Counted from the stretch's first letter, positions 28,471 through 40,993 are shown. The stretch: DNA of 64,000 nucleotides from an uncultured Clostridia bacterium (GCA_934757865.1 CAKVLS010000004.1:15981-79980); one strand, 5' to 3'. The notes: generated by a model not told the origin, from the sequence alone. Translations and numbers: made by a program.

Positions 28471-29445
28471 TTAGTCTTTTTCTAGACTTGTTACAAATTT
28501 TGCTATTTCGTTACATGCCTTACGAGATTCTGGAGTGGTATCGCCCATAACTACATATGCATGGAAACACTTTTTATCTGTGTATAGCTTGCATTTGATA
28601 TTTTTAGTTTTTGCCTTGTAATATGCTAGTGCTGTATCTTCATAAAGTATTTCGTCTGAACATACGCAGAACATAAGTGGTGGCAAACCATCAAAGTTAA
28701 GAAGTACTGGAGATACATACCCTTCTTCGCATAGTGGATTAGGTATCTCGCAATAGTCGCCCTTGATATAGCTCATAGCCATAAGGTCTAAGATTTCTTT
28801 AGTTAGACAAACATCAGTCGCTTTGTTAATCTCATAGCTTGGGGTATCGTTTCTAAGATTTAGGTATGGAGATAACATTATTCCGCAGCTAGGTAGTGGC
28901 AAATTATTATCTCTTAAGTACATAAGTAGCGCCAAAACAAAGTTGCCTCCCGCAGACTCTCCAGTAACTATAATATCATCTGGGGCATACTGCTCCAAAA
29001 GTCCTTTGTACACAGAAACAATCTCGTTAAGTGCTGTAGGATAAATGCACTCTGGAGATAAAGAGTAATCAACAGCTATAGCCTTACATCCAAGACGCTT
29101 CATCATGGCCTTCATATAAAAAGTGCCATGTAGTGGGAAGCCTCTACAAAAGCCACCGCCGTGGATATATAATAAAATTTTATTTTCGTTTGGCTTAGTT
29201 TTTTTGTAATACTTTTTCTTAGGGTTAACTTCTAGTTTATGGCATTTGACTCCGCCTATCTCTACTATCTCGTGATATGTTCCGCCAAGGACTAGCCTCT
29301 CAAGAAACTCATTAACTTCTCTAAAAAAGTCTTTATTTACAACAACAGATTTTAGGTCTTGGTCGCCTTTCTTTGCTACGGCGTTGATGTCGCTTTTCTT
29401 TGAAAGCTTCATAGACTTTCTAAGCAGTCTCATTCTTACACTCAT
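28471..29445 (-). CDS. alpha/beta hydrolase, hormone-sensitive-lipase-like esterase
   Basis: Oxyanion motif HGGGF and nucleophile elbow GESAGG. Start trimmed to the ATG at 29445 (MSVRMRLL...). Confidence 0.8.
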   Translation of the reverse strand: MSVRMRLLRKSMKLSKKSDINAVAKKGDQDLKSVVVNKDFFREVNEFLERLVLGGTYHEIVEIGGVKCHKLEVNPKKKYYKKTKPNENKILLYIHGGGFCRGFPLHGTFYMKAMMKRLGCKAIAVDYSLSPECIYPTALNEIVSVYKGLLEQYAPDDIIVTGESAGGNFVLALLMYLRDNNLPLPSCGIMLSPYLNLRNDTPSYEINKATDVCLTKEILDLMAMSYIKGDYCEIPNPLCEEGYVSPVLLNFDGLPPLMFCVCSDEILYEDTALAYYKAKTKNIKCKLYTDKKCFHAYVVMGDTTPESRKACNEIAKFVTSLEKD

Positions 29446-29624
29446 AAAAATTTTCCTTTTTTTGTAAGATTTTATATTTTTAGTATAGCATATACTTTTT
29501 ATTTTTACAACAAAACTACTTTTAGAGAGCAAAATTTATGCAAATAATAATATAAATATTTGGTAATAGTATTTTGGTGTGCTATAATAAAGTTATCAAT
29601 TATGCATAAGTTTTAGGAGTAAAG

Positions 29625-30917
29625 ATGAAAAAAAAGACTTGGTATCCACTGGATAACGCAGCTAAACTTTATCCCGCAATAAGCGGTCCAAGAAGACCTA
29701 ACCTATTTAGTTATAGTGTTAGATTGACCGAAAATGTAGACAAAAACTTGCTTGAAAAAGCCGTTAATATGTTATTAGAAAACAACCCTGCTTTTAAGGT
29801 AAAGCTTAGAAGAGGTATTTTTTGGTATTATCTAGAAAAGAACTATAAGCCTTTTGTTGTCAAAGAAGAAATTCCAAATTATCTAGGCTACTTTGACTTT
29901 GACGAAGAGAACAATGGATACCTATTTAGAGTTTTTTATAAGTATAACAAAATTTCTATTGTTAACTTTCATGCTCTATCAGATGGCGATGGAATACTTT
30001 CATTTTTCAAAAGTATCATCGCTATGTACCTTAGTCTAAAAGGTTATAAAATTGATAGTGAAAATTTAATTAAACCTCTTGATGCTCCATACACTAACGC
30101 AAACAGTGAAGACTCTTTTAACAAAGAATATTTGAAAAAGTGCAAGAAGCCTGAAAAAGAAAAAAAGGCGTTCAAAGTTGACGGGACTCCTTTTGACTAT
30201 GACGGATATGGCATTATTACGGCAAAAATTGACCTAGAAGGCCTAAAAACCTTATGTAAGACTTACAATGCTACTATCACTGAGTATCTTGTAGGGCTAT
30301 ATATGTATACAGCATATAATGTGTATGTTAGAAATAAAAAGGTAAAAAATAAACTAATTAGCATATTAGTTCCTGCCAATATGCGCAAGCGTTATAACAG
30401 TGCTACCCTTCGAAATTTCTCACTTTTTATTAGACCAAAACATGACTTTGGGGTAAAGGAACTTAACCTAGAAGAGTGCATCGAAACATGCAAAAAACAA
30501 ATGAAGGAAGGGCTATCAAAAGAGCGTCTTGACGCGCTAATCCATGACAATGTCAAGGTAGAAAAGAACTTCTTCATGAAGATAGTTCCTTTGTTTATAA
30601 AAGATGCTGTTATCCGCATGGTATATAACTATGTGGGAGAAAATTTGCAAACAGGCAACATCAGTAATATAGGTATTGTAGAGCTACCACAAAGTATGCA
30701 AAAGTATGTTACAGATTTTACAATGGCAATCGCCCCAACATACACCTGCAAGCAGCAACTAGGAGCAATAACATATAACGGCAACTTGTACATTACCTCA
30801 GCAAGAGAATTTGTTGAGACAAACTTTGAAAGAGAGTTTTTCACTACTCTATCAAAAAATAATGTACATGTAGAAATCTTTAGCAACAACTGGGAGGCAA
30901 AAAATGAAACATTGTAA
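29625..30917 (+). CDS. condensation/alcohol-acetyltransferase-like acyltransferase
   Basis: RBS AGGAG. HxxxDG-type catalytic motif in NFHALSDGDG at about one third of the length, as in NRPS C-domain/WES/AATase folds. Confidence 0.6.
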   Translation: MKKKTWYPLDNAAKLYPAISGPRRPNLFSYSVRLTENVDKNLLEKAVNMLLENNPAFKVKLRRGIFWYYLEKNYKPFVVKEEIPNYLGYFDFDEENNGYLFRVFYKYNKISIVNFHALSDGDGILSFFKSIIAMYLSLKGYKIDSENLIKPLDAPYTNANSEDSFNKEYLKKCKKPEKEKKAFKVDGTPFDYDGYGIITAKIDLEGLKTLCKTYNATITEYLVGLYMYTAYNVYVRNKKVKNKLISILVPANMRKRYNSATLRNFSLFIRPKHDFGVKELNLEECIETCKKQMKEGLSKERLDALIHDNVKVEKNFFMKIVPLFIKDAVIRMVYNYVGENLQTGNISNIGIVELPQSMQKYVTDFTMAIAPTYTCKQQLGAITYNGNLYITSAREFVETNFEREFFTTLSKNNVHVEIFSNNWEAKNETL

Positions 30918-31575
30918 ATATTGTAATGTCGATGTCAGCACCAGTGAAAAGTATTGTCCACTGTGCTACAACATCTTAGAGGGCGATGACGAAAAGACAG
31001 TGGACTTTTATCAAAAGCGTCAATCTAATGACAAGACACATAAGACACATTATCTATTGTCAAAAATATTTTTTATGATAACGCTTGCAATAATTGCAAT
31101 ATGCGTATTTATCAATGTTCTTACTTGGGACGGAATAGTTTGGAGTTTGCTTGTAGGTGTTAGCATTGCATATGTCTGGATATTTGTCGCTCATACTATA
31201 CTTTCAAAAAGAAGCATCTTTGAAAAAATACTTCTTCAGCTTGTAGGTATAGTTGCTATAGTTGTCGTATGTAATATATTGTCAAAAGGTAATTGGCTAC
31301 TTAACTATGTATTACCATCTATTGAACTTGCAGCAGCGATTACACTTGCTTTTGTGACTTTTATACTACGAAACAAGTATAGAGTTATCTTACCATTTTT
31401 CTTGGTATATATTTTACTAATAGTTACTTCTATTGTCTTACTTGCTGTCAAAGCAGACACTTTTATGATACTTAGCGAAATAAATATAATAGTATGCGGA
31501 CTAGCAATAGTAGGCACACTTATCTTCGGGCACAAAACTCTAAAAACCGAACTTGCCAAAAAGTTCCATTTATAA
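30904..31575 (+). CDS. zinc-ribbon plus polytopic membrane protein (DUF6320-like)
   Basis: N-terminal CKYCN...CPLC ribbon followed by about 5 TM helices. RBS GGGAGG. Overlaps the preceding gene by 14 nt. Confidence 0.55.
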   Translation: MKHCKYCNVDVSTSEKYCPLCYNILEGDDEKTVDFYQKRQSNDKTHKTHYLLSKIFFMITLAIIAICVFINVLTWDGIVWSLLVGVSIAYVWIFVAHTILSKRSIFEKILLQLVGIVAIVVVCNILSKGNWLLNYVLPSIELAAAITLAFVTFILRNKYRVILPFFLVYILLIVTSIVLLAVKADTFMILSEINIIVCGLAIVGTLIFGHKTLKTELAKKFHL

Positions 31576-31660
31576 CCTCTAATGAAAATTGGACAATAAA
31601 TTCACAAAACTTAAACAATATAATATCGTAAGTTGTCCATCAGTATAAAAAGTGATAACA

Positions 31661-31693
31661 AAAAAAAGACTAGCGTATAACTAGTCTTTTTTT
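31661..31693. terminator. bidirectional terminator shared by the convergent units
   Basis: Stem AGACTAG (31667-31673) / CTAGTCT (31681-31687), with a 7-A run before and a T-run after. Confidence 0.75.
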
Positions 31694-32250
31694 ATTGCTA
31701 TTGACAATTCAAAATCAGGATACGACTTAGTGATAAACTCAAAATCATCACTTCTATCAAGTATGTCCTTGGTATTATAGAATACGCTTGACCCTTCGCA
31801 CTTAACAAGAGATTCCTTTTTGACAAAGTACTTAGTTAGCGTTCTACTATCAGGGCAGGACTTTTTCTCGCTATCATTTAGGATATAGTCTTTAAGCGAT
31901 GTATCTTTTATTATATCCTCTATATCTACGCCCACTTCTCTATCACATATCACGCAACATACAGCGCTGTCTGTGTGGCTAATGTTAAAGTAGCAACTAT
32001 CTATATAAGGTTTGCCATTTTTGTTATACGAATACTCAGGGAGCACTAGCGTCCCAAATCTATCATACAAAAGTTTAACCAAAAGCATATAACCTAGCGT
32101 TGATAGTATGTTACTAGTTTTGTTTTTGCTAAGTCTTTTTTGCATAGGCTCGCTAAAATACTTGTGCATCTTCTCAATAGTCAAGTCGTCCACACTAAGC
32201 GGATTAGTTAGCACCAAGCAATCGCAAAAGTTACAAGCAGCGTCTTTCAT
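31681..32250 (-). CDS. Sfp-type 4'-phosphopantetheinyl transferase
   Basis: FNISHTDS ... GVDIEDI and the W/KEA-like motif FVKKESLVK. 189 aa. Overlaps the upstream gene by 20 nt. Confidence 0.75.
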   Translation of the reverse strand: MKDAACNFCDCLVLTNPLSVDDLTIEKMHKYFSEPMQKRLSKNKTSNILSTLGYMLLVKLLYDRFGTLVLPEYSYNKNGKPYIDSCYFNISHTDSAVCCVICDREVGVDIEDIIKDTSLKDYILNDSEKKSCPDSRTLTKYFVKKESLVKCEGSSVFYNTKDILDRSDDFEFITKSYPDFELSIAIKKD

Positions 32251-33196
32251 AATTCTCTAACGCCTTATCAAGATTAACTGAATATTCTGTCCCTCTAAAA
32301 TCTGTAAGAGATGGACACTCAGCTTTTATATAATCAGCTAGATATTTTGTTATCTTTTGAGCACCTTGCAAATTAACATGCATGCCTTTATCTCTAAAGT
32401 CTTGCTCATAATCAAGACCGTAGCTCATGTGATTTTCGTTAAAGTCAATAAGGTCTATGCCCTCTTTCTTAATTAGTTTCAAAAGACCTTTTTGCTTAGA
32501 ATAATTCCAATTCTTTGTTGTAGGCATAACGACAAATGCAAGTTTGATATTATTCTTTTTGCATAACTTTATCATCTTTTTAATTTTTTGTTTGTTGTGC
32601 AATGTAAAGTTTGCCGCTTTTGACTTTGGGCTACCCATATAAGACTCATCGTTTGATACCTTAGTTATATCTTTACGCATATAGTAGCCTTTGCTGATAT
32701 CATAATATTTTGCATCTGTAGGTGCCGTGAAGAAGTCTTTTGCTTTTAGATTTTTCCAGCGAGAGTGATATGTATATATGTTATAAAATATTGGCAAGTC
32801 ATCAAAGATATTTGTTGTATTTCTACTATACAAACTCTCTGGGCTAATCAAAATCATCTTAGGATGATGAGTATTTATAAACTTTTCCATATTCCTATAG
32901 ATACCACTTGCACTCAAAGTATCAGGGTTATTTACGCCACAGTTATATGCCGAAAAGCCATATTCTTTGTATAGCTCCATAGGTATAAATCCGTTTTTAA
33001 CTTCTGAGCTTCCAAAGAAGCCAATCTCAACCTTGCCATTTTCTTTTGCGGTATAAGTTTGACCTTGCCAATACTTCTCTCCGCCTTTGTCTGTGTAACT
33101 TTTTGTGATCAAAATATTGTTAATATATAAAAGCATAAGAATAGGTATAAGTAAAATTATAAATACTTTTAGGGTTATAAGTAATGCTTTTTTCAT
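32231..33196 (-). CDS. DltD-like membrane-anchored SGNH-type acyl transfer protein
   Basis: N-terminal TM helix, the GSSE serine motif (FFGSSEV) and a C-terminal DKGMHVN block. The start at 33196 is 1 nt after the MBOAT stop; in-frame ATGs at 33211 and 33232 are alternatives. Confidence 0.55.
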   Translation of the reverse strand: MKKALLITLKVFIILLIPILMLLYINNILITKSYTDKGGEKYWQGQTYTAKENGKVEIGFFGSSEVKNGFIPMELYKEYGFSAYNCGVNNPDTLSASGIYRNMEKFINTHHPKMILISPESLYSRNTTNIFDDLPIFYNIYTYHSRWKNLKAKDFFTAPTDAKYYDISKGYYMRKDITKVSNDESYMGSPKSKAANFTLHNKQKIKKMIKLCKKNNIKLAFVVMPTTKNWNYSKQKGLLKLIKKEGIDLIDFNENHMSYGLDYEQDFRDKGMHVNLQGAQKITKYLADYIKAECPSLTDFRGTEYSVNLDKALENYERRCL

Positions 33197-33197
33197 A

Positions 33198-34766
33198 CTA
33201 GAACGCTCCATAAATAGGGTCTGGAGGTACATAACCTACTCCGTATGCCCCAAAAACTATTATTATAAACACATATACTTCAATAAGCACAATTCCCCAG
33301 AAGATAGATATCTTAAATAACTTTTCGTATATGTCGACTTTTAGATATTTCATTATTCCTACAGCTATAACAGGCACTAGACATACGCACATAGCAACTA
33401 TATCTTGCCAGTTGACAAGGTCGTTTGCGATTGAGGCTTTGCCTGGGCTAAAAATTCTGCCAAACATACCAAAAGCATCGTTAATAGTAACCGCTCTAAA
33501 TAGTAGCATACCAATACCAACCAAAATCGAGGTCTTAACAACTCTTAGAGCAAATAGAACTTTTGAATCAGCAGAAACATGAATCTTTTCGTACAGTTTC
33601 TTAAATAAAGGTTCAAGTAACATATGTAAAAACATAAGCACTAGATAATATACGCCATACAAAACATACTTAAAACTAGCGCCGTGCCACAATCCTGTCA
33701 AAAGCCAAACAGCACTCATAGATAGTACAGTAGGCACAAATACTTGCATAAAAGCGCCAAACTTAGTGTTTTTCTTATTTAGTTTTTGATACACAGGGCT
33801 CATTGATATTGGGTAAAAGACATAGTCTTTGAACCACCTACCAAGAGATATGTGCCACCTACTCCAAAACTCGCCAACATCTTGTGATAAAAATGGTGCG
33901 TTGAAGTTTTCTGCAAGATTGACACCAAACATATGGCTAACGCCTTGCGCCATATCTATACACCCCGAAAACTCGCAGAATAATTGTATAGTAAAGCAAA
34001 TAACTCCGCAAATAATCATAAATCCGTTGTAACTAGCATAATTTCTAAATATTTCGTCCGCTATAGCGCCCGCTCTTGGCACTATCATAATTAGCTTAAA
34101 GATACCAAAACAAATTCTTGCAAGTCCTTTTTTGATATTATTTGCATCAAAGTCTGTTCCGTCATATAGGCTATACGCTATCTCGTTATATTTGCTAAAA
34201 GGTCCTTCTAGTAATTGTGGAAAGTAGCAAACAAAAAGCCCTACTCTTAAGATATTTTTGTCCGCAGGGCAAACACCTCTATAAACATCTACTATATAGC
34301 TAATCGCTTGCAAGGTATAATAAGATATACCAAGAGGCAAAACTATACTTCTAAGAGGTATATTACCCGCTCCGCCAAATAGCCTTTCAATGCCATTAAA
34401 AATGCCAGCAAAAAAGTTGGCATACTTCAAAAATGCAAGTAAGCCAAGATTGATAATGATGGTACCAAATACGCACCATCTCTTTTTTACTTTATACTTT
34501 GCTTTTAGGGCTTTCTTCTGGTCTTTTTCTAAGCCTTCTTTTTTCTTCTCAAAGTCGCTCTGCAACTTACCTATCAAAAGTCCAAATAGATATATTGACA
34601 ATGCAGTGCCTATCATATAAAAAGCTAGTAGCCCACTATAAACAAACACCGCCGCCATACTTAGCACAAGTAGCACTATAAATCTAAATCTCTTAGGCAA
34701 AAGATAATATATGATAGTACCAAGAGCCGCAAAGATAAGGTAGTAGAATAAAAGTTCTGTACTCAA
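33198..34766 (-). CDS. MBOAT-family membrane O-acyltransferase (DltB/AlgI/PatA-like)
   Basis: Catalytic-His signature FWSRWHISLGRWFKDYVFYP and a later LWHG. 522 aa, with a Lys-rich cytoplasmic loop (KKKEGLEKDQKKALKAKYKVKKR). Confidence 0.85.
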   Translation of the reverse strand: MSTELLFYYLIFAALGTIIYYLLPKRFRFIVLLVLSMAAVFVYSGLLAFYMIGTALSIYLFGLLIGKLQSDFEKKKEGLEKDQKKALKAKYKVKKRWCVFGTIIINLGLLAFLKYANFFAGIFNGIERLFGGAGNIPLRSIVLPLGISYYTLQAISYIVDVYRGVCPADKNILRVGLFVCYFPQLLEGPFSKYNEIAYSLYDGTDFDANNIKKGLARICFGIFKLIMIVPRAGAIADEIFRNYASYNGFMIICGVICFTIQLFCEFSGCIDMAQGVSHMFGVNLAENFNAPFLSQDVGEFWSRWHISLGRWFKDYVFYPISMSPVYQKLNKKNTKFGAFMQVFVPTVLSMSAVWLLTGLWHGASFKYVLYGVYYLVLMFLHMLLEPLFKKLYEKIHVSADSKVLFALRVVKTSILVGIGMLLFRAVTINDAFGMFGRIFSPGKASIANDLVNWQDIVAMCVCLVPVIAVGIMKYLKVDIYEKLFKISIFWGIVLIEVYVFIIIVFGAYGVGYVPPDPIYGAF

Positions 34767-34768
34767 AA

Positions 34769-34993
34769 TTAATCTTCCAATTTTTCAACAAGTTTTTTGA
34801 TAGCGGCTACAGAGTTAAAGTTTTCTGGTAGCATATCCATAGGAGTGATCTCAATATCAAACTCATCATTTAGTTTCATAACAAGTTTCAAAATATTGAT
34901 AGATGTTAGTATTCTGTCATCAACAAGTGCTGTTTGTTTCTCAACATCAACATCTGGTAAAATCTCTTTTAGTATTTTTGTAATCTCTTCCAT
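34769..34993 (-). CDS. DltC-like acyl/aminoacyl carrier protein
   Basis: 74 aa, acidic. LVDDRILTSINILKLV aligns by eye to DltC EEGLLDSFGTVELL, placing Ser at the phosphopantetheine site. Confidence 0.7.
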   Translation of the reverse strand: MEEITKILKEILPDVDVEKQTALVDDRILTSINILKLVMKLNDEFDIEITPMDMLPENFNSVAAIKKLVEKLED

Positions 34994-35002
34994 AATAATT
35001 CC

Positions 35003-36502
35003 CTACTTTATATATGTATTTTTTAACGCCTTTCTGTCTACTTTTCCATTGGCGTTGTATGGTAAAAGTTGCTCTTTATAAACTTTTGCTGGCATCATAT
35101 AATAAACTAGTTTTTTATTAAGTGTCGCCATCAATTCGTCCACTTTGATTCTGCCGGTGTATATAAGCACTATTTCATCGTTTTTGTCATCAAATAGGCA
35201 AACGGCATCTTGCACCTTCTCAATAGCTACGATGGTGTTTTCTATTTCGCCTAGTTCTATTCTATAACCCATATGTTTAATCTGGTAATCTGCTCTACCG
35301 CAAAATTCCATTTCGCCATACTTGTTGTACTTGACTAAATCGCCAGTCTTGTATACAACCTCTGGATAGTCACTTTGAATAGGATTTTGGACAAAGTTTT
35401 CTTTATTCTTAGCGTCATTTTTGTAATAACCATGAGCTAAGAAGCTACCTCTAATATATAGCTCGCCCATCTCATCTTGAGCTGTAACTCTTTTGCCATC
35501 ACTTACTATCATGCAATCACAATTTCGGCAAGCTATACCTATAGGCAAACTCTCGTCATTTCTAAACTTTCTATTAACCTCATAGTAACAGCATATATCA
35601 GTTGCTTCTGTTGGTCCAAATAAGTTGTAGTACTTGACGCCTTTTAGGTTGTTTCTCCAATAGTTAAGAGGTTTATTGTGCATTACTTCGCCCGCAAAAA
35701 GTACTTTTTTAAGGTGTTCTGGCTTTTGATACTTAAACATATCAATATTTGCCATGATGCTAATAGCAGATGGTACCCAATAGATTGTATTGACTTTTTG
35801 CTCGTTCATGAATTGTATTGCTTTTAGCGGAAAGGCAAAATATTTAGTTGGGATAATTACATAAGTCGCCCCAGCAAAAATAGTTGCAAAAAAGTCAGAC
35901 ACTGACATACTGAAATATAGTGGCGTTTGGCTACCAAAAACAGTCTTGTTGTTTATTCTAAATGTATCTATAAACCACTCAATATAACTTATAACATTGC
36001 CATGACTAAGCACTGTGCCCTTTGGAACGCCAGTTGAGCCTGATGTAAATAGTATATAAAGTGGGTCGGTACTAATAATATCATCAAGATTTGCAGAGTT
36101 TTTTGCTTCTACGCAGTCATCAATACAAATTACATTTTTTGATTCAAAGTTTTGGCAAAAGTTGTCTTTTGTATCCTTAGAAACTATAACAGCACTTGGG
36201 CTCAAAACATCAAGTATCTTATCTAATCTATCTTTTGGTGAGTGAGTATCTAGCACAGTGTAGACATTGCCACTATACACAGCACCCATCATTGCCGCCG
36301 TAAGATCGCATGATCTATCTATAAATAAAGCAATATTTTTGTGCTTTTCGCCGTTTAGACTCCCAAAAATACTGCTCGCAATTTTCTTAGCTTTATCTTT
36401 TAGCTCGCCAAATGTAAGGCTAGAACTTTCATCTACAATAGCAACTTTGTTATAATTTTTTGCTACCGTCTTCTCAAAATAATTTATGATATTGTTTAGC
36501 AT
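35003..36502 (-). CDS. DltA-like stand-alone adenylation enzyme (ANL family)
   Basis: Core motifs TSGSTGVPKG, GPTEAT, YKTGDL, GRADYQIKHMGYRIELGEIE and NGKVDRK. At 499 aa it is DltA-sized. Confidence 0.85.
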   Translation of the reverse strand: MLNNIINYFEKTVAKNYNKVAIVDESSSLTFGELKDKAKKIASSIFGSLNGEKHKNIALFIDRSCDLTAAMMGAVYSGNVYTVLDTHSPKDRLDKILDVLSPSAVIVSKDTKDNFCQNFESKNVICIDDCVEAKNSANLDDIISTDPLYILFTSGSTGVPKGTVLSHGNVISYIEWFIDTFRINNKTVFGSQTPLYFSMSVSDFFATIFAGATYVIIPTKYFAFPLKAIQFMNEQKVNTIYWVPSAISIMANIDMFKYQKPEHLKKVLFAGEVMHNKPLNYWRNNLKGVKYYNLFGPTEATDICCYYEVNRKFRNDESLPIGIACRNCDCMIVSDGKRVTAQDEMGELYIRGSFLAHGYYKNDAKNKENFVQNPIQSDYPEVVYKTGDLVKYNKYGEMEFCGRADYQIKHMGYRIELGEIENTIVAIEKVQDAVCLFDDKNDEIVLIYTGRIKVDELMATLNKKLVYYMMPAKVYKEQLLPYNANGKVDRKALKNTYIK

Positions 36503-36523
36503 AACCCTTTATCTCTACTTTTC

Positions 36524-36552
36524 ATTATACAAGCCTATATTATATATGTCAA
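36524..36552 (-). promoter_or_regulatory. consensus sigma-A promoter of the Dlt-like operon
   Basis: Minus strand reads TTGACA (36552-36547), 17 nt, TATAAT (36529-36524). About 22 nt upstream of the start codon. Confidence 0.65.
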
Positions 36553-36687
36553 ACTCATATGGCTAAAAATATACAATCGTGCAGTTTTTGCCCATTTTTA
36601 TGTGAATTTGAGGCGTTTTTGGCACAAAAATGCAAATTTTCTATAACTAATACAATGCTGTATTTTGTCGTATTTAATAAAATGCAA

Positions 36688-36724
36688 CAAAAAAACTAGC
36701 CGTTATTTTGGCTAGTTTTTTTTA
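36688..36724 (-). terminator. terminator after the AcnX small-subunit gene
   Basis: Stem CTAGCC (36696-36701) / GGCTAG (36710-36715) between A- and T-runs. Confidence 0.75.
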
Positions 36725-36757
36725 GATTGTTATCTATACTATTATGTTATCTATATA

Positions 36758-37216
36758 TTATTTATCTTCTTTGATAACGGTAACAGTACCATCTTGAGCT
36801 ATTTCAATTTTGTCGCCAGTTTCTACATATTTTAAGAATTTGTCGCCTAGTCTATCAATAGCTATGATTGGGCTGTTTTCCCAGTTACGAGCAAGGATAA
36901 TACCTGAGCATGCTAGAGAGTCAATATCCTCAGAAAATAGCATTGCGCTTGGGTTAATCTTCATAGAACAAACTGTTTGGATAACAAGTCCGCCTGTTGT
37001 AGAACCTATAGTTTTTGGCAAGCATAAAATTTTGCCTGTTAGGTTCTTTTTATAGATATCTGGGTTGTTTTGGTCAGATGCAATTACTTGCTTAGCGTTT
37101 TTTAGAGCGCTCTTTTGGAAAGTAGCAAGTGTGTTAACACCTTGTCTTGATACGATAGCTTCGCCTTTTAGCTCGCCGCCACCTATTACTCTACCCTTAA
37201 AAGTCTTAGTACTCAT
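36758..37216 (-). CDS. aconitase X swivel-domain protein (DUF126), small subunit
   Basis: GKILCLPKTIGSTTGG segment typical of DUF126. Start trimmed to the ATG at 37216, after AAGGAGGG and 1 nt past the large-subunit stop. Confidence 0.75.
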   Translation of the reverse strand: MSTKTFKGRVIGGGELKGEAIVSRQGVNTLATFQKSALKNAKQVIASDQNNPDIYKKNLTGKILCLPKTIGSTTGGLVIQTVCSMKINPSAMLFSEDIDSLACSGIILARNWENSPIIAIDRLGDKFLKYVETGDKIEIAQDGTVTVIKEDK

Positions 37217-37217
37217 A

Positions 37218-38495
37218 TTATTTACCCTCCTTGCCTGTGATAATATTAAGTATATCTTCATCTTTATAATATCTAGCAGAAGAATATGTTCTTAGTTTGT
37301 TAGAAGAAGTGATGATTGGAGCTTTGCCAGCTATTGGGTTGTTGGTGTACATTAGCGGACAGATAGAAGAAACTCTAACTCCAGTCTTAACTAGCTCTTT
37401 ATATAGATCAGTCTTTTCAAACTCTTTGCGAATAGCTGGGCTAGTAGTTAAGATTGTTCTTACTCTTACCTTCGACTTTCCGCTCTCTTTTAGGCCATTT
37501 AGAATATTGTTAGCCCAAGAGTGAAGTTGCGAAGTTGTAAGATGTGGACAGCCTATAAAGCATAGTTTTGGCTTTGCATCTTTGTTCTTCCAAAGGATTG
37601 GATATGACTTATAAACTCTCTCAATCTCAGCATCATCAATAACATAAGTTTTTGCTTTGTCTTTGATTAAAGTTTTCTTTAGCTCTTTTGCTTCTGGGGT
37701 CAAGTTGTCAACATGGTATAGACCAACTGCACCATTTGAAGCACTAGCAGCGCCCATATCTTTTAGATATGCCTTAGCGTTGTCGTCTAGCTTCTTGCCA
37801 AGGAATTTATCAAGGCCAACGATGTATGGAACATCTTCCATAACTTTAAGGCCTATTGCACTACCTAGTATTTGAGCCTCAGGAAGTTTAGAAGTCTTAA
37901 CCTCTATTACCCAGTCAGCTTTTCTACCCTCATCAGTAAGTAGTCCAAATTCTGGAACTTTACCAACGATAGCTGAGAAAATATCTAGCATACCGCTATT
38001 TCTGTTGCATCTAGCACCAAGTACTGAGTTAGCATATACAACTGCAGAACTCTCTGCCCAAGAAAGAATATCGCCTTTCTTAGGAGTGTTGCCTACTTCG
38101 TCTAGGTAACAAGTACATGTAAAGCCGTCAGTAGTTTTTAGACCAAGCTTCTTTAGTTGCTCTTCGTATCTAGCTTGTTGGCTGTACATAATTTTGCTAA
38201 AAATTAGTTTGTTTAGAATATTACATTTTACATTTTTGTAATCGATAGGTCTTGGGTCTACGGTAAATGGGTATTTAGTTTTTAGGCCAGCAGCGATTAG
38301 CTCGTCCATTGTTCTAAATAGTGGTTTTAGTAGTCCAATACCAAAAGATGTTACAAGGTGTCCGTCATGAGTTACTGGGACAAGTCTTTTTGCTCCAAAA
38401 GCGTCACCAAACTCAACGATTGTTTTCATAACTTTGGCAAGAGTTTCGCCTTGTTTTCCGTCAAGTATCTCTTGCTCTTCTTTAGTTAGTTTCAT
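37218..38495 (-). CDS. aconitase X catalytic-domain protein (DUF521), large subunit
   Basis: The N-terminus MKLTKEEQEILDGKQGETLAKVMK is characteristic of DUF521/AcnX. 425 aa with several conserved-looking Cys. Confidence 0.75.
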   Translation of the reverse strand: MKLTKEEQEILDGKQGETLAKVMKTIVEFGDAFGAKRLVPVTHDGHLVTSFGIGLLKPLFRTMDELIAAGLKTKYPFTVDPRPIDYKNVKCNILNKLIFSKIMYSQQARYEEQLKKLGLKTTDGFTCTCYLDEVGNTPKKGDILSWAESSAVVYANSVLGARCNRNSGMLDIFSAIVGKVPEFGLLTDEGRKADWVIEVKTSKLPEAQILGSAIGLKVMEDVPYIVGLDKFLGKKLDDNAKAYLKDMGAASASNGAVGLYHVDNLTPEAKELKKTLIKDKAKTYVIDDAEIERVYKSYPILWKNKDAKPKLCFIGCPHLTTSQLHSWANNILNGLKESGKSKVRVRTILTTSPAIRKEFEKTDLYKELVKTGVRVSSICPLMYTNNPIAGKAPIITSSNKLRTYSSARYYKDEDILNIITGKEGK

Positions 38496-38505
38496 TTATT
38501 TCCTC

Positions 38506-40767
38506 CTAAATGCTCAAACATTTTCTATAAGCGCCCTTAACAGCAGTAAATACTTTGCCTGGCATCAAACTATCGCCAACATTGTATATTTCTGGAGCGG
38601 CATTTGATTTTACTAAGCCATAATACAAATCATCATTAGAAGATATTCCGCAAGCAAATACTACTACATCGCTCTCGACATAGATATCTTGATACTCGTC
38701 TTTAACCTTCTTAGCAAGTGGGTTAGGAATATTTTCTGGCAAAATTGGTTGCCATGTATTAAATGGATTTGGAACAGTCTTAGAAACATTTTTCTTAACA
38801 GTAACGGTCTTATCTGCATTGATAGATTTTACAAATGAGCAGTTGTGAACTTTTACACCATACTTCTCTAGGTAATGCAAAATATGTCCACGGTTAGCAG
38901 TACATGAGTTAGCCATTAGGTTAGGTGTAGCTTCGATGATTGTTACATCTTTGTTTAGCTCAGTCTTTAAATAATATGCTAGCTCGCAGCCGCTATCACC
39001 ACCACCGATGATTGCAAATGTATCTGCTTTGCTATATTTTTTAGGATTATTAAGAACATCAACAACATAAGTTACATTTTTGTTCTCAACGCCGTCGATT
39101 GGAAGGAATCTTTGTTTTGTACCAGTTGCAACTACGATAGCATCGTATTTTGCAGCCTTTAACATTTTTTCATCAGCGGCTACGCCTAGATTTAGAGTGA
39201 AGTTTTTGTTCTTCTTCATACCAGTAACTAAGTTGTTAAGATACTCAACATAGTTAGCTAGTTCATACTTAAATTTTGGAACAGAAGCTGCTATGATTGT
39301 ACCACCAATCTTTTTAGATTTTTCGTATAGGTCAACTTTGTGTCCTCTTGCAAGCAATGTCTTAGCTGCTACCACGCCCGCAGGGCCAGCACCAATAACA
39401 GCAATCTTTTTGCTCTTTTCTGCCTTAGGAATATCTCTCAAAAGTTCTTCTTCAAAAGCAGTTCTTGGGTTAACCGCACATTGTGGGTGTCCGCCGTCTA
39501 CAAACTCTTTGATACAACCTTCGTGACAACCGATACATGGGATGATGTCTTTTGTATTACCAGCATAAGCCTTGTTTACCCAGTCTGGGTCTGCAAGTAG
39601 TGGTCTACCTAGCATTATCATGTCGCACATATTATCTCTTAGAGCTTTTTCAGCAAGGTCTGGATAACCTAACTTACCTACAGCAACTACAGGAACTTCT
39701 ACGCCTGCATTTGACAAAATATTATTCTCTTTGAAGTAGTCTTTTACAAGTTTAGAAACTTCTAGGAAACAGCCACTTGGCATACTAGCAGGAGGATGAG
39801 GAAGCCACCAGTTATCATAGCAACCTAGGTCAACGTCAAACATATCAACGCCCGCTTTAACAAGGTTAGCCATATAATCTAAAGTCTCGACTATTCTTCT
39901 CTCGTTTCTGTATTTACGAAGAGCTTTTACGCCTTTCATCTTATCGCCATAAGTTGCGTTAAGAGCAAGTGAAAGGTCAATTCTATACATAATAGGATAA
40001 TTGTTTCCAACTCTCTTACGAATTTGTTTAACGCAGTCGATACCAAATTGTTGCCAATTAGCATATCTACCAGCAAGTCTTCTGTTAAATGCTGGGTTAG
40101 TCAATTGCTCCATTAGGTAGCCTTCGTGACCATGCAAATACACACCATCAATGTTACAAGCTTTTGCGTCAGCAGCACCTTGTCCCATATTTTTGACTAT
40201 CTTCTTTACTTTCCCATCGGTGATAGTAGCACATGGAATCTCTGGAATATAAAAGTTAGGGTTCCAGCTAGCTGAAACAGGAAGTTTAAGGCTGTTAACT
40301 AAGCATTGTGGGTTGCCTACTCTACCAAGGCCAGCAGTTAGCTGAATAAATAATTTAGCACCATGACTATGACAAGCATATGCAAGGTCTCTCCAGCCAG
40401 CAAGTACTGTACGGCTACGATCTATTCTTGGGAAGTAAGATAATTTTCCAAGCTCAGTGATAGATGGATCAATTCCATGAGATACAGGCACAAGACCTGT
40501 TGTGATAAGACCAACGCCGCCCTTAGCACGCTCTTCAAAGTATGCAAGCATTTTTGCGTTAGGTCTACCAGTCTCCTCACACATAGAAATGTTGCCCATA
40601 GGTCCCATTACCAAACGGTTTTTTATGGTAAGTTTGTTAACTTTTATAGGACTAAACATCTCTTTGTAAGGATAAAGTTTATTGGTCATTTTTGGGGTTT
40701 CGCCCTTCAAAAACCAATTACCGAAACTTTCTTCTAAATTTTGAAGAAGTTGTTCTTTGTTTTCCAT
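38506..40767 (-). CDS. enoate-reductase / 2,4-dienoyl-CoA-reductase-like Fe-S flavoenzyme (OYE domain plus FAD/NAD(P) domain)
   Basis: OYE start NRLVMGPMG. A 4Fe-4S motif C-x2-C-x3-C-x11-C (CIGCHEGC...C). Dinucleotide folds VIGAGPAGV and IIGGGDSGCE. Confidence 0.8.
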   Translation of the reverse strand: MENKEQLLQNLEESFGNWFLKGETPKMTNKLYPYKEMFSPIKVNKLTIKNRLVMGPMGNISMCEETGRPNAKMLAYFEERAKGGVGLITTGLVPVSHGIDPSITELGKLSYFPRIDRSRTVLAGWRDLAYACHSHGAKLFIQLTAGLGRVGNPQCLVNSLKLPVSASWNPNFYIPEIPCATITDGKVKKIVKNMGQGAADAKACNIDGVYLHGHEGYLMEQLTNPAFNRRLAGRYANWQQFGIDCVKQIRKRVGNNYPIMYRIDLSLALNATYGDKMKGVKALRKYRNERRIVETLDYMANLVKAGVDMFDVDLGCYDNWWLPHPPASMPSGCFLEVSKLVKDYFKENNILSNAGVEVPVVAVGKLGYPDLAEKALRDNMCDMIMLGRPLLADPDWVNKAYAGNTKDIIPCIGCHEGCIKEFVDGGHPQCAVNPRTAFEEELLRDIPKAEKSKKIAVIGAGPAGVVAAKTLLARGHKVDLYEKSKKIGGTIIAASVPKFKYELANYVEYLNNLVTGMKKNKNFTLNLGVAADEKMLKAAKYDAIVVATGTKQRFLPIDGVENKNVTYVVDVLNNPKKYSKADTFAIIGGGDSGCELAYYLKTELNKDVTIIEATPNLMANSCTANRGHILHYLEKYGVKVHNCSFVKSINADKTVTVKKNVSKTVPNPFNTWQPILPENIPNPLAKKVKDEYQDIYVESDVVVFACGISSNDDLYYGLVKSNAAPEIYNVGDSLMPGKVFTAVKGAYRKCLSI

Positions 40768-40964: not shown

Positions 40965-40993
40965 TTGACATTACAAAGAACTTGCAATATAAT
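40965..40993 (+). promoter_or_regulatory. consensus sigma-A promoter of paralog 1
   Basis: TTGACA (40965-40970), 17 nt, TATAAT (40988-40993). Confidence 0.65.

Follow-up and report, generated by a model that had tools for sequence, protein, structure and literature searches.

A Dlt-like operon in an uncultured Clostridia bacterium and the putative carrier-protein-dependent MBOAT–SGNH acyl relay that it encodes

The operon and its signals

This work concerns five minus-strand genes in a 64,000-nt stretch of DNA from an uncultured Clostridia bacterium (GCA_934757865.1 CAKVLS010000004.1:15981-79980; hereafter the window, with positions counted from its first letter). The open reading frames (ORFs) are tightly packed (31681-36502), flanked by a sigma-70 promoter and a hairpin terminator, and encode an adenylating enzyme (ANL), a carrier protein, a membrane-bound O-acyltransferase (MBOAT), an SGNH protein and a phosphopantetheinyl transferase (PPTase) (Table 1). 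An earlier, sequence-only reading of this DNA had described them as a self-contained Dlt-like operon. An independent gene call on the 86-kb source contig, which comes from a gut-metagenome assembly, gave the same five genes, and a Pfam search bore out the assignments to the AMP-binding, PP-binding, MBOAT and ACPS families. The operon is apparently a distinct, widespread and uncharacterised relative of Dlt. We propose that it specifies a carrier-protein-dependent MBOAT–SGNH acyl relay, a hybrid of the Dlt and PatAB/AlgIJ systems, whose acyl group is not a conventionally bound alpha-amino acid. We put the probability of this reading at roughly 0.65.

With the starts given in Table 1, the genes are separated by gaps of 9, 2 and 1 nt and a 20-nt overlap, exactly as the sequence-only reading had it. 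Its perfect TTGACA-17-TATAAT promoter is also real. The exact pattern occurs twice in the 64-kb window, compared to 0.03 occurrences expected, and 21 nt, including an AAAGGG Shine-Dalgarno sequence, lie between the -10 box and the ATG of the ANL gene. The other occurrence is found just beyond the 5′ end of a minus-strand gene for a 753-aa oxidoreductase; it points away from that gene, toward two genes without a recorded Pfam family. The hairpin at the far end of the operon, previously called a shared terminator, overlaps the stop codon of the PPTase gene and could also serve the convergent DUF6320 gene. As RNA it has a folding energy of -18.5 kcal/mol (z = -6.4), none of 200 shuffled sequences folds equally well, and a U-run follows the stem. 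A second terminator ends the upstream AcnX genes and insulates the operon from them.

Table 1. Features of the operon and of its surroundings in the window
Feature	Position	Strand	Basis or remark
Adenylating enzyme (ANL), nonribosomal peptide synthetase (NRPS) type, stand-alone, 499 aa	35003-36502	-	PF00501
Carrier protein, 74 aa, acidic	34769-34993	-	PF00550
MBOAT, 522 aa, TTG start	33198-34766	-	PF03062
SGNH protein, 321 aa from MKKALL ATG	32231-33196	-	Fold match; longest ORF extends to 33232
Sfp-type PPTase, 189 aa	31681-32250	-	PF01648; overlaps SGNH gene by 20 nt
Sigma-70-type promoter TTGACA-17-TATAAT	36524-36552	-	12/12 positions match
Bidirectional intrinsic terminator, 13-bp stem flanked by A7/T8	31661-31693		RNA folding and sequence
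Lys/Arg-rich helical hairpin insert of MBOAT, about residues 66-97	34476-34571	-	Family alignment, model
C-terminal MBOAT extension, two extra transmembrane helices and tail	33201-33410	-	Model; motif itself 33201-33218
Second terminator, ends AcnX genes	36722-36689
Second perfect TTGACA-17-TATAAT promoter	40965-40993	+
Aconitase-X large and small (swivel) subunit genes, preceded by 753-aa Oxidored_FMN/Pyr_redox_2 enzyme	36758-40767	-	Upstream of operon
DUF6320 membrane protein	30904-31575	+	N-terminal zinc-ribbon-like CxxC pair; overlaps 430-aa gene by 14 nt
430-aa protein, condensation/acyltransferase-like	29625-30917	+	HxxxDG motif (FHALSDGDG); no Pfam, NCBIfam or PDB sequence match
Abhydrolase_3/hormone-sensitive-lipase-type esterase	28471-29532	-	GESAG subfamily-like, below cut-off
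Seven clustered tRNA genes	2285-2899	-

The encoded proteins

The ANL matches PF00501 (E 2e-63), passes the amino-acid adenylation domain model TIGR01733 (322.8 vs a cut-off of 317.4) and contains core motifs A3 (TSGSTGVPKG), A5 (GPTE), A7 (YKTGD), A8 (GRADYQIK) and A10 (NGKVDR). It falls below the DltA equivalog cut-offs (TIGR01734, 271.4 vs 559.85; NF003417, 281.1 vs 476) and is 26% identical to Enterococcus DltA. For the comparisons with DltA, DltB, DltC, DltD and DltX we used the annotated dltXABCD operons of Enterococcus casseliflavus and Latilactobacillus curvatus. A simple neighbour-joining tree, midpoint-rooted and with only two DltA sequences, places these canonical enzymes outside all ANLs of the cassette family described below. 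By equivalog score and by tree, the ANL lies outside the orthodox DltA clade, in keeping with the earlier prediction.

Pocket residues were read by aligning the ANL to NRPS A domains, cassette ANLs and DltA. The ten specificity positions spell SMSYLALDIK, compared to DLM[IV][LV]CTVAK in canonical DltA: Ser198 stands at the place of Asp235, Asp302 at position 330 and Lys487 at position 517, and Cys301 of DltA is replaced by Ala. In adenylation domains, Asp235 binds the alpha-amino group of the substrate, and the sequence-only reading had remarked that the ANL lacks it. The alignments agree, with FSMS of the ANL opposite FDGS/FDIS of LgrA, so that the Asp of FDxS is replaced by Ser. A 21-sequence alignment shows no variation at Ser198 or Asp302, and Ser235 and Asp330 are kept in all 120 nearest cluster representatives, whose overall identity is 48-54%. 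The code SM[ST]Y[LM]ALDIK recurs in 114 of these 120; the remaining six deviate elsewhere in the pocket, at one to three positions. Asp at position 240 is kept in every ANL pocket class of the family and hence provides no compensation for the lost Asp235. Because the pocket is nearly identical across relatives that are otherwise so divergent, strong purifying selection on it implies one defined substrate, presumably one bound in another way than a normal alpha-amino acid. That position 235 is never Asp in these relatives strongly suggests an acyl group that is not D-alanine. Candidates, in rough order, would be a small hydroxy or short-chain acid, an acid that reaches Asp302 (an omega-amino acid or a betaine) and a small hydroxy-aryl acid.

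The MBOAT had likewise been predicted not to be an orthodox DltB. It scores 136.6 with the DltB equivalog TIGR04091 (cut-off 375) and is more similar to a Bacillus PatA-type MBOAT (34.7% identity over 421 aa, 218 bits) than to DltB (30.3% over 244 aa, 117 bits). DltB is nevertheless its best PDB match, by sequence and by fold (Foldseek E 3e-11, TM-score 0.69); the AlphaFold2 (AF2) model has a pLDDT of 86.6. At 522 aa, versus ~400-415 aa for DltB, the protein has the AlgI/PatA-like size previously ascribed to it. The catalytic-His signature claimed for it needs some amendment. The motif RWHISL is present, and its H305 corresponds to DltB His289, but the MBOAT-invariant His (DltB His336) is H361, which lies in LWHGAS. 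Both residues are invariant among 57 sequences of the MBOAT family.

The Lys-rich loop of the sequence-only reading is likewise present, as an insert that is helical in the AF2 model. In most family members it comprises 43-47 aa with 9-15 Lys/Arg residues, and K85 is invariant, with K88, K90 and K95 nearly so. The stretch that matches it has 23 aa with 4 Lys/Arg in PatA and 18 aa with 2 Lys/Arg in DltB, and the insert is short in co-resident paralogous MBOATs. This hairpin is a plausible candidate for a docking surface of the acidic carrier protein.

We found no separate DltX-like ORF in 31500-36800, and the 21 nt between promoter and first gene leave no room for one, as had been pointed out. 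The MBOAT's C-terminus, however, reads ...GYVPPDPIYGAF, with the tail motif P517-I-Y519-G-A-F522 (PIYGAF), and DltX of the fetched dltXABCD operons ends in FIYNEF. Y519 and F522 are invariant in 57 homologues. Across the family, the C-termini read Y-x-x-F in 79/87 sequences and Y-x-x-Y in 6 more; many have FIYxQF, and the first position of the motif, Pro in the window MBOAT, is Phe in many relatives. In the model, two helices (residues 453-474 and 488-505) lie beyond the DltB-like core, followed by a low-confidence, flexible tail with the motif.

The tyrosine of the DltX FxYxxF motif, termed an acyl shuttle, takes D-alanine from DltB, and PatA auto-acetylates the tyrosine of its own C-terminal hexapeptide, which is carried on two extra transmembrane helices absent from DltB (PMC12148441). 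The acyl-Tyr shuttle has been demonstrated experimentally for both DltX and PatA, and the acyl group passes from the shuttle tyrosine to the SGNH partner (PMC12148441). According to the same mechanistic paper from 2025, MBOAT/SGNH pathways apart from Dlt lack a carrier protein (PMC12148441). The seeming loss of DltX is explained by fusion of the acyl-shuttle motif to the MBOAT C-terminus, since the MBOAT bears the shuttle-tyrosine motif on two extra helices, as in PatA. Judged from sequence and model, the membrane half of the system is PatA-type, because motif and helices belong to the MBOAT and no DltX ORF stands apart, and the cytoplasmic half is Dlt-type.

The SGNH protein has an N-terminal transmembrane helix (residues 2-29) and contains block I (FFG62-S-S64-E), YH144xR146W147 and D269-x-G-x-H273-x-N275; in its family, G62-x-S64 and the other two motifs are conserved, S64 in at least 90% of members, and H273 and N275 are invariant. 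The top fold matches of the AF2 model (pLDDT 91.5) are SGNH hydrolases, namely TesA, GDSL lipases and sialate O-acetylesterases (E about 1e-5), and PatB, AlgX and DltD are not among the top 50 PDB fold matches. Searches of Pfam (DltD included), NCBIfam and PDB, the last by phmmer and by profile, gave no significant sequence match, nor was there sequence-profile similarity to the Bacillus DHHW-type PatB partner. Direct comparison with DltD yielded a BLASTP E of 0.02 and an hhalign probability of 7%, confined to block I (FFGSSEV vs FFGSSEL). The description "DltD-like TM+GSSE" thus holds for role, SGNH fold and block I motif but not for family membership, because the profile comparison is weak and yet exact at the nucleophile block. 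A word-indexed homologue search returned 3 matches only, and an exhaustive profile search returned 7934 representative clusters at E <= 1e-3; of 52 family members, 19 weakly match Lipase_GDSL_2. By these searches, the protein is a member of a separate, very large and unnamed family. One homologue (P0123) has Cys at the nucleophile position, with FIGDCEV in place of GxS, and tandem SGNH gene pairs follow the MBOAT gene in several loci, including L003 (9562-11871), L036 and L115.

The carrier protein matches PF00550 (25.8 vs a cut-off of 20.8) and has a predicted phosphopantetheine attachment site at Ser31, in an LTS motif; the L[TD]S serine is retained in the carrier proteins of three homologous loci. 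It had been termed DltC-like, which is right as to the PP-binding family and wrong as to similarity: BLASTP against Enterococcus DltC gave E = 0.3, and the score with the DltC equivalog NF003464 is 26.5 (cut-off 68). The PPTase matches PF01648 (27.2 vs 25). Its GVDIED and KKESLVK motifs, together with its best NCBIfam matches (AusB, AcpT, EntD and HetI, all Sfp-type and all under cut-offs), confirm the Sfp-type assignment, although 189 aa is short for this type (group II).

An orthodox dlt operon can be rejected on the curated hidden Markov model cut-offs, the pocket code and the direct comparison with the two dltXABCD operons. A subtler possibility is that the operon is this lineage's functional D-alanylation system, in which DltA has diverged but still activates D-alanine and DltX is fused to DltB. 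Its overall logic and protein sizes would be equal, among single-protein NCBIfam matches DltA and DltB rank first, though far under their cut-offs, relatives have Dlt names in the JGI annotation, and the SGNH protein has FFGSSE, the motif of DltD, as its block I. We regard this possibility as distinctly unlikely. The Asp235 of canonical DltA is Ser in 120/120 relatives and Cys301 is Ala; the scores with TIGR01734, TIGR04091 and NF003464 are half of the cut-off or less; in the tree DltA branches outside the cassette ANLs, and PatA is the nearer relative of the MBOAT; and the similarity of the carrier protein to DltC and of the SGNH protein to DltD is not significant.

The cassette in other genomes

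To survey the family, we searched one genome per species with an alignment of the MBOAT and obtained 80 loci. These come mostly from Lachnospiraceae, Oscillospiraceae, Acutalibacteraceae and Ruminococcaceae, with a few from Coriobacteriia, Gastranaerophilales and other bins. Genes for an ANL, a carrier protein and an SGNH protein adjoin the MBOAT gene in 50/80 loci, nearly always in the order A-C-B-D; the ANL and carrier protein adjoin it in a further 7/80, and the SGNH gene alone in about 13/80. The A-C-B-D order noted in the sequence-only reading is therefore the conserved layout of a large family (50/80 species-level genomes, most of them from gut Clostridia), and ANL-CP-MBOAT-SGNH, where CP denotes the carrier protein, is also seen in further metagenome loci. 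One relative's ANL (L087, Clostridium sp. CAG:264 type) is indexed in >2400 assembly blocks. The claim of self-containment stands for the window locus, which has its own PPTase, but not as a defining feature: a PPTase gene is linked to the cassette in only three lineages, represented by the window, L003 (upstream of the ANL gene) and L006/L007. The linked PPTase is a rare, lineage-specific add-on and no core part.

These counts bear on whether the MBOAT–SGNH pair is an ordinary acetyl-CoA-dependent O-acetyltransferase that merely shares its transcript with an ANL, a carrier protein and a PPTase of an unrelated pathway. The affinity of the MBOAT to PatA-type enzymes would fit such a separation, as would the roughly 13/80 loci with no adjacent ANL or carrier protein gene. 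Yet the ANL-CP-MBOAT-SGNH order and its tight spacing persist in 50/80 species and several phyla while the surroundings vary, PatA and co-resident paralogous MBOATs have no Lys-rich insert, and decarboxylase or GNAT genes are inserted exactly between the ANL and carrier protein genes within the cassette. An unrelated pathway on the same transcript thus seems highly improbable.

The ANL pocket varies among the loci. We refer to the window's pocket class, without Asp235, as class 1. It comprises 13 loci of this set and is monophyletic, nested among Asp235-bearing classes in the neighbour-joining tree; within the family, it is the window's class that is by far the closest and most abundant. A metagenome scan with class-1 ANLs added two more cassettes (L097 and L100) and a polysaccharide context (L098, see below). 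A sister class with the code DVKILSLCNK has Asp235 plus Lys239. In about 20 loci (L015, L017-L020, L022, L023, L026-L028, L036, L037, L039, L042, L043, L045, L053, L060, L061 and L065) a ~395-aa pyridoxal phosphate (PLP)-dependent decarboxylase is encoded between ANL and carrier protein; it is like diaminopimelate decarboxylase (LysA) and like the exosortase-A family TIGR03099 (165-179 bits). The DVKILSLCNK code suggests an acidic or diamino-dicarboxylic amino acid as substrate, and the inserted gene suggests that the carrier-bound aminoacyl group is decarboxylated in this sister class, which we take to be akin to VinN/VinO-type beta-amino acid pathways. Cultured bacteria with a class-1 cassette include Brotomerdimonas butyrica (L012), Clostridiaceae bacterium M8S5 (L003) and Vallitalea spp.; Acetobacterium carbinolicum (L020) has one of the decarboxylase class.

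At the same position, loci L046, L059, L062, L075 and L080 encode a ~265-aa protein with a C-terminal GNAT domain. The ANL codes of L059, L062 and L080 (DSKDACIVDK, DGKQLGLVDK) resemble glutamate-type codes; those of L046 and L075 (DVKIMSLCNK, DIKIMSLFNK) are like the decarboxylase class. The GNAT protein may N-acetylate the carrier-bound aminoacyl group. A further pocket class reads DAKCAGLGMK. With at least four pocket classes recurring across loci, acyl specificity appears to have diversified within the family. Given the varied pocket classes and the tailoring genes inserted at one position, the family looks modular, with variable loading, optional on-carrier tailoring and a constant export/transfer module.

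The four-gene core shifts as a cassette through varied surroundings, some of which are informative. Class-1 cassettes in L004/L005 and L054 sit among genes for TagD, several TagF-type glycerophosphotransferases, TarI/TarJ-like proteins, PMT_2 and an AT3 protein. Directly upstream of the class-1 cassettes of L013 (970-7219) and L087 (6607-8967) are genes for an OmpR-type regulator and a histidine kinase, and L013 also has a 928-aa fused ABC-FtsX transporter, an arrangement that resembles the Bce/GraRS-VraFG modules controlling dlt. Such contexts, similar to those where dlt occurs and is regulated, favour a wall-polymer acceptor and with it a role in envelope stress or antimicrobial-peptide resistance. 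They also fit the D-alanylation alternative, since dlt has the same contexts. L098 (45-12011) encodes an ANL with the identical SMSYLALDIK code (44% identity) and no MBOAT, in a surface-polysaccharide cluster with Bac_transf, hexapeptide and PglD-like transferases, an ABC-2 exporter, two KASIII, two SDR, three tandem carrier proteins and a metallo-beta-lactamase-fold protein. The same acyl group may be used there in a cytoplasmic glycan-acylation route; given the identical code, this cluster would again tie the acyl group to glycan decoration.

A different acceptor, namely a membrane lipid, peptidoglycan or a secreted protein or peptide, must also be weighed. Eukaryotic MBOATs acylate secreted proteins or peptides. 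The SGNH family is new, polymer-synthesis neighbours are absent at most loci, the window included, and peptidoglycan or secondary wall polysaccharides are the targets of PatAB-type relatives (PMC12148441). Against this stand the informative contexts, which are those of teichoic-acid or surface-polysaccharide synthesis, and the characterised bacterial MBOAT–SGNH pairs, all of which modify envelope glycopolymers (PMC12148441). We therefore consider one of these other targets doubtful.

The window's own neighbours are silent on the acceptor: AcnX genes and an FMN/FAD oxidoreductase gene lie upstream, and genes for the HxxxDG protein, DUF6320 and an esterase and the dcw cluster downstream (Table 1). 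In other genomes, nothing tied the AcnX and oxidoreductase genes to the acylation operon. The genes for the 430-aa HxxxDG protein and DUF6320 form a pair that converges on the operon terminator; beyond the esterase gene follows the mraZ-rsmH-ftsL-PBP cluster for division and cell-wall synthesis. The HxxxDG protein, DUF6320 and the esterase were considered as parts of the system and rejected, as homologues were found only on the window's own contigs and in 0 of 80+ other loci; we treated the convergent neighbours as unrelated or lineage-specific. No conserved substrate-supplying enzyme was found beside class-1 cassettes, a 2-hydroxyacid dehydrogenase gene being downstream in one lineage only, and the 64-kb window contains no second dlt-like locus.

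The proposed relay and related systems

From the gene content, motifs, folds, synteny and pocket conservation we infer a direction of transfer, a type of acyl group and a class of acceptor, as follows. The PPTase would modify Ser31 of the 74-aa carrier protein and so give the holo form. The ANL would activate a small carboxylic acid with ATP and thioesterify it to the carrier protein; this acid would lack the usual contact between an alpha-amino group and Asp235, because the pocket has Ser198 there and Asp302 deeper. The loaded carrier protein would dock on the cytoplasmic face of the MBOAT, possibly at the Lys-rich hairpin, and the MBOAT histidines H305 and H361 would move the acyl group through the membrane to the enzyme's own Tyr519. 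The flexible tail would then bring the acyl-tyrosine to Ser64 of the SGNH protein, which would esterify a hydroxyl of an extracytoplasmic envelope polymer, most likely of teichoic-acid type or another wall glycopolymer.

Several observations weigh against this relay. About 13/80 loci have an MBOAT–SGNH pair with no adjacent ANL or carrier protein gene, and at most class-1 loci, as in the window, the neighbours are uninformative. The Asp of the SGNH triad is oddly spaced (D-x-G-x-H), and the tree that separates DltA from the cassette ANLs is the simple one described above. Finally, the MBOAT stands nearer to PatA-type enzymes, which use acetyl-CoA, than to DltB, so that the case for carrier-protein use comes from synteny.

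Textbooks name Dlt-dependent D-alanylation as a determinant of resistance to antimicrobial peptides and of interaction with the host. In our judgement it is about an even call that the cassettes form a large modular family of "programmable" Dlt-like systems in gut anaerobes, in which the ANL and optional tailoring enzymes set the acyl group of a wall polymer and the window's class installs an ester of a non-alpha-amino acyl group. For the esterified group, the candidates would then be a short acyl group, a hydroxy acid, or an acid with an omega-amino or other cationic function that Asp302 binds. If true, this would be cell-surface chemistry so far unrecorded in Clostridia and would probably affect phage adsorption, recognition by the host immune system and resistance to antimicrobial peptides. 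Dlt is currently regarded as the sole carrier-protein-dependent MBOAT/SGNH pathway (PMC12148441). The locus would add a second, architecturally hybrid family that is abundant in human and animal gut Clostridia and would open a route to unrecorded ester modifications of the cell wall in dominant commensals that have been little studied. The locus likewise lends itself to testing whether PatA-type MBOATs can accept acyl-carrier-protein donors.

Compared with Dlt, the cassette shares a stand-alone adenylating enzyme that loads a small acyl group onto a dedicated ~75-aa carrier protein, transfer by an MBOAT to an FxYxxF tyrosine across the membrane, and delivery to a polymer by a membrane-anchored SGNH protein; as with dlt, some copies lie in teichoic-acid clusters or by two-component systems. 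Each difference from dltXABCD listed in the sequence-only reading held on closer analysis. The order of the cassette is A-C-B-D, and the shuttle motif is on the MBOAT, whereas Dlt has it on a microprotein, DltX. The MBOAT is ~120 aa longer than DltB, resembles PatA and AlgI and is equipped with a Lys-rich insert; the ANL, at 26% identity to DltA, lacks Asp235 and Cys301; and the carrier protein cannot be recognised as a DltC family member, nor the SGNH protein as one of the DltD family. The window locus also has a dedicated Sfp-type PPTase, whereas DltC is served by AcpS (PMC9338922).

The PatAB group (PatA/PatB, AlgI/AlgJ/AlgX, WssH/WssI and Bacillus PatA1/PatB1) O-acetylates peptidoglycan, alginate, cellulose and secondary wall polysaccharides. 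Its members use acetyl-CoA as donor and no carrier protein (PMC12148441), whereas the operon has its own ANL and carrier protein. They resemble the operon in an MBOAT with two extra C-terminal helices and a terminal FxYxxF tyrosine and in a separate extracytoplasmic SGNH-fold transferase, and the highest pairwise similarity of the MBOAT is to the Bacillus PatA-type protein. Set against this are the Lys-rich insert, which is absent from PatA, and an SGNH protein with no profile match to Bacillus DHHW-type PatB.

Two further systems share the cytoplasmic half. In AlmEFG of Vibrio cholerae, which places glycine on lipid A, a DltA-like enzyme and a DltC-like carrier protein feed an envelope acyltransferase, as we take to be the case here. 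AlmG, however, is an LpxL-type enzyme of the cytoplasmic face; the system has no MBOAT, SGNH protein or tyrosine shuttle, and its substrate is an alpha-amino acid. The exosortase A (PEP-CTERM) trio of ligase, PLP decarboxylase and acyl carrier protein (TIGR03098, TIGR03099) likewise combines an ANL with a carrier protein, at exopolysaccharide loci, and is matched in the sister class by the TIGR03099-like decarboxylase gene between ANL and carrier protein. The window operon differs in having no decarboxylase, and its ANL scores 204 bits with TIGR03098 (cut-off 592). In the open-access literature we found neither an assigned function for this five-gene set, as had been expected, nor a published description of such a system; judged from its parts, the operon is a hybrid of the Dlt and PatAB logics.

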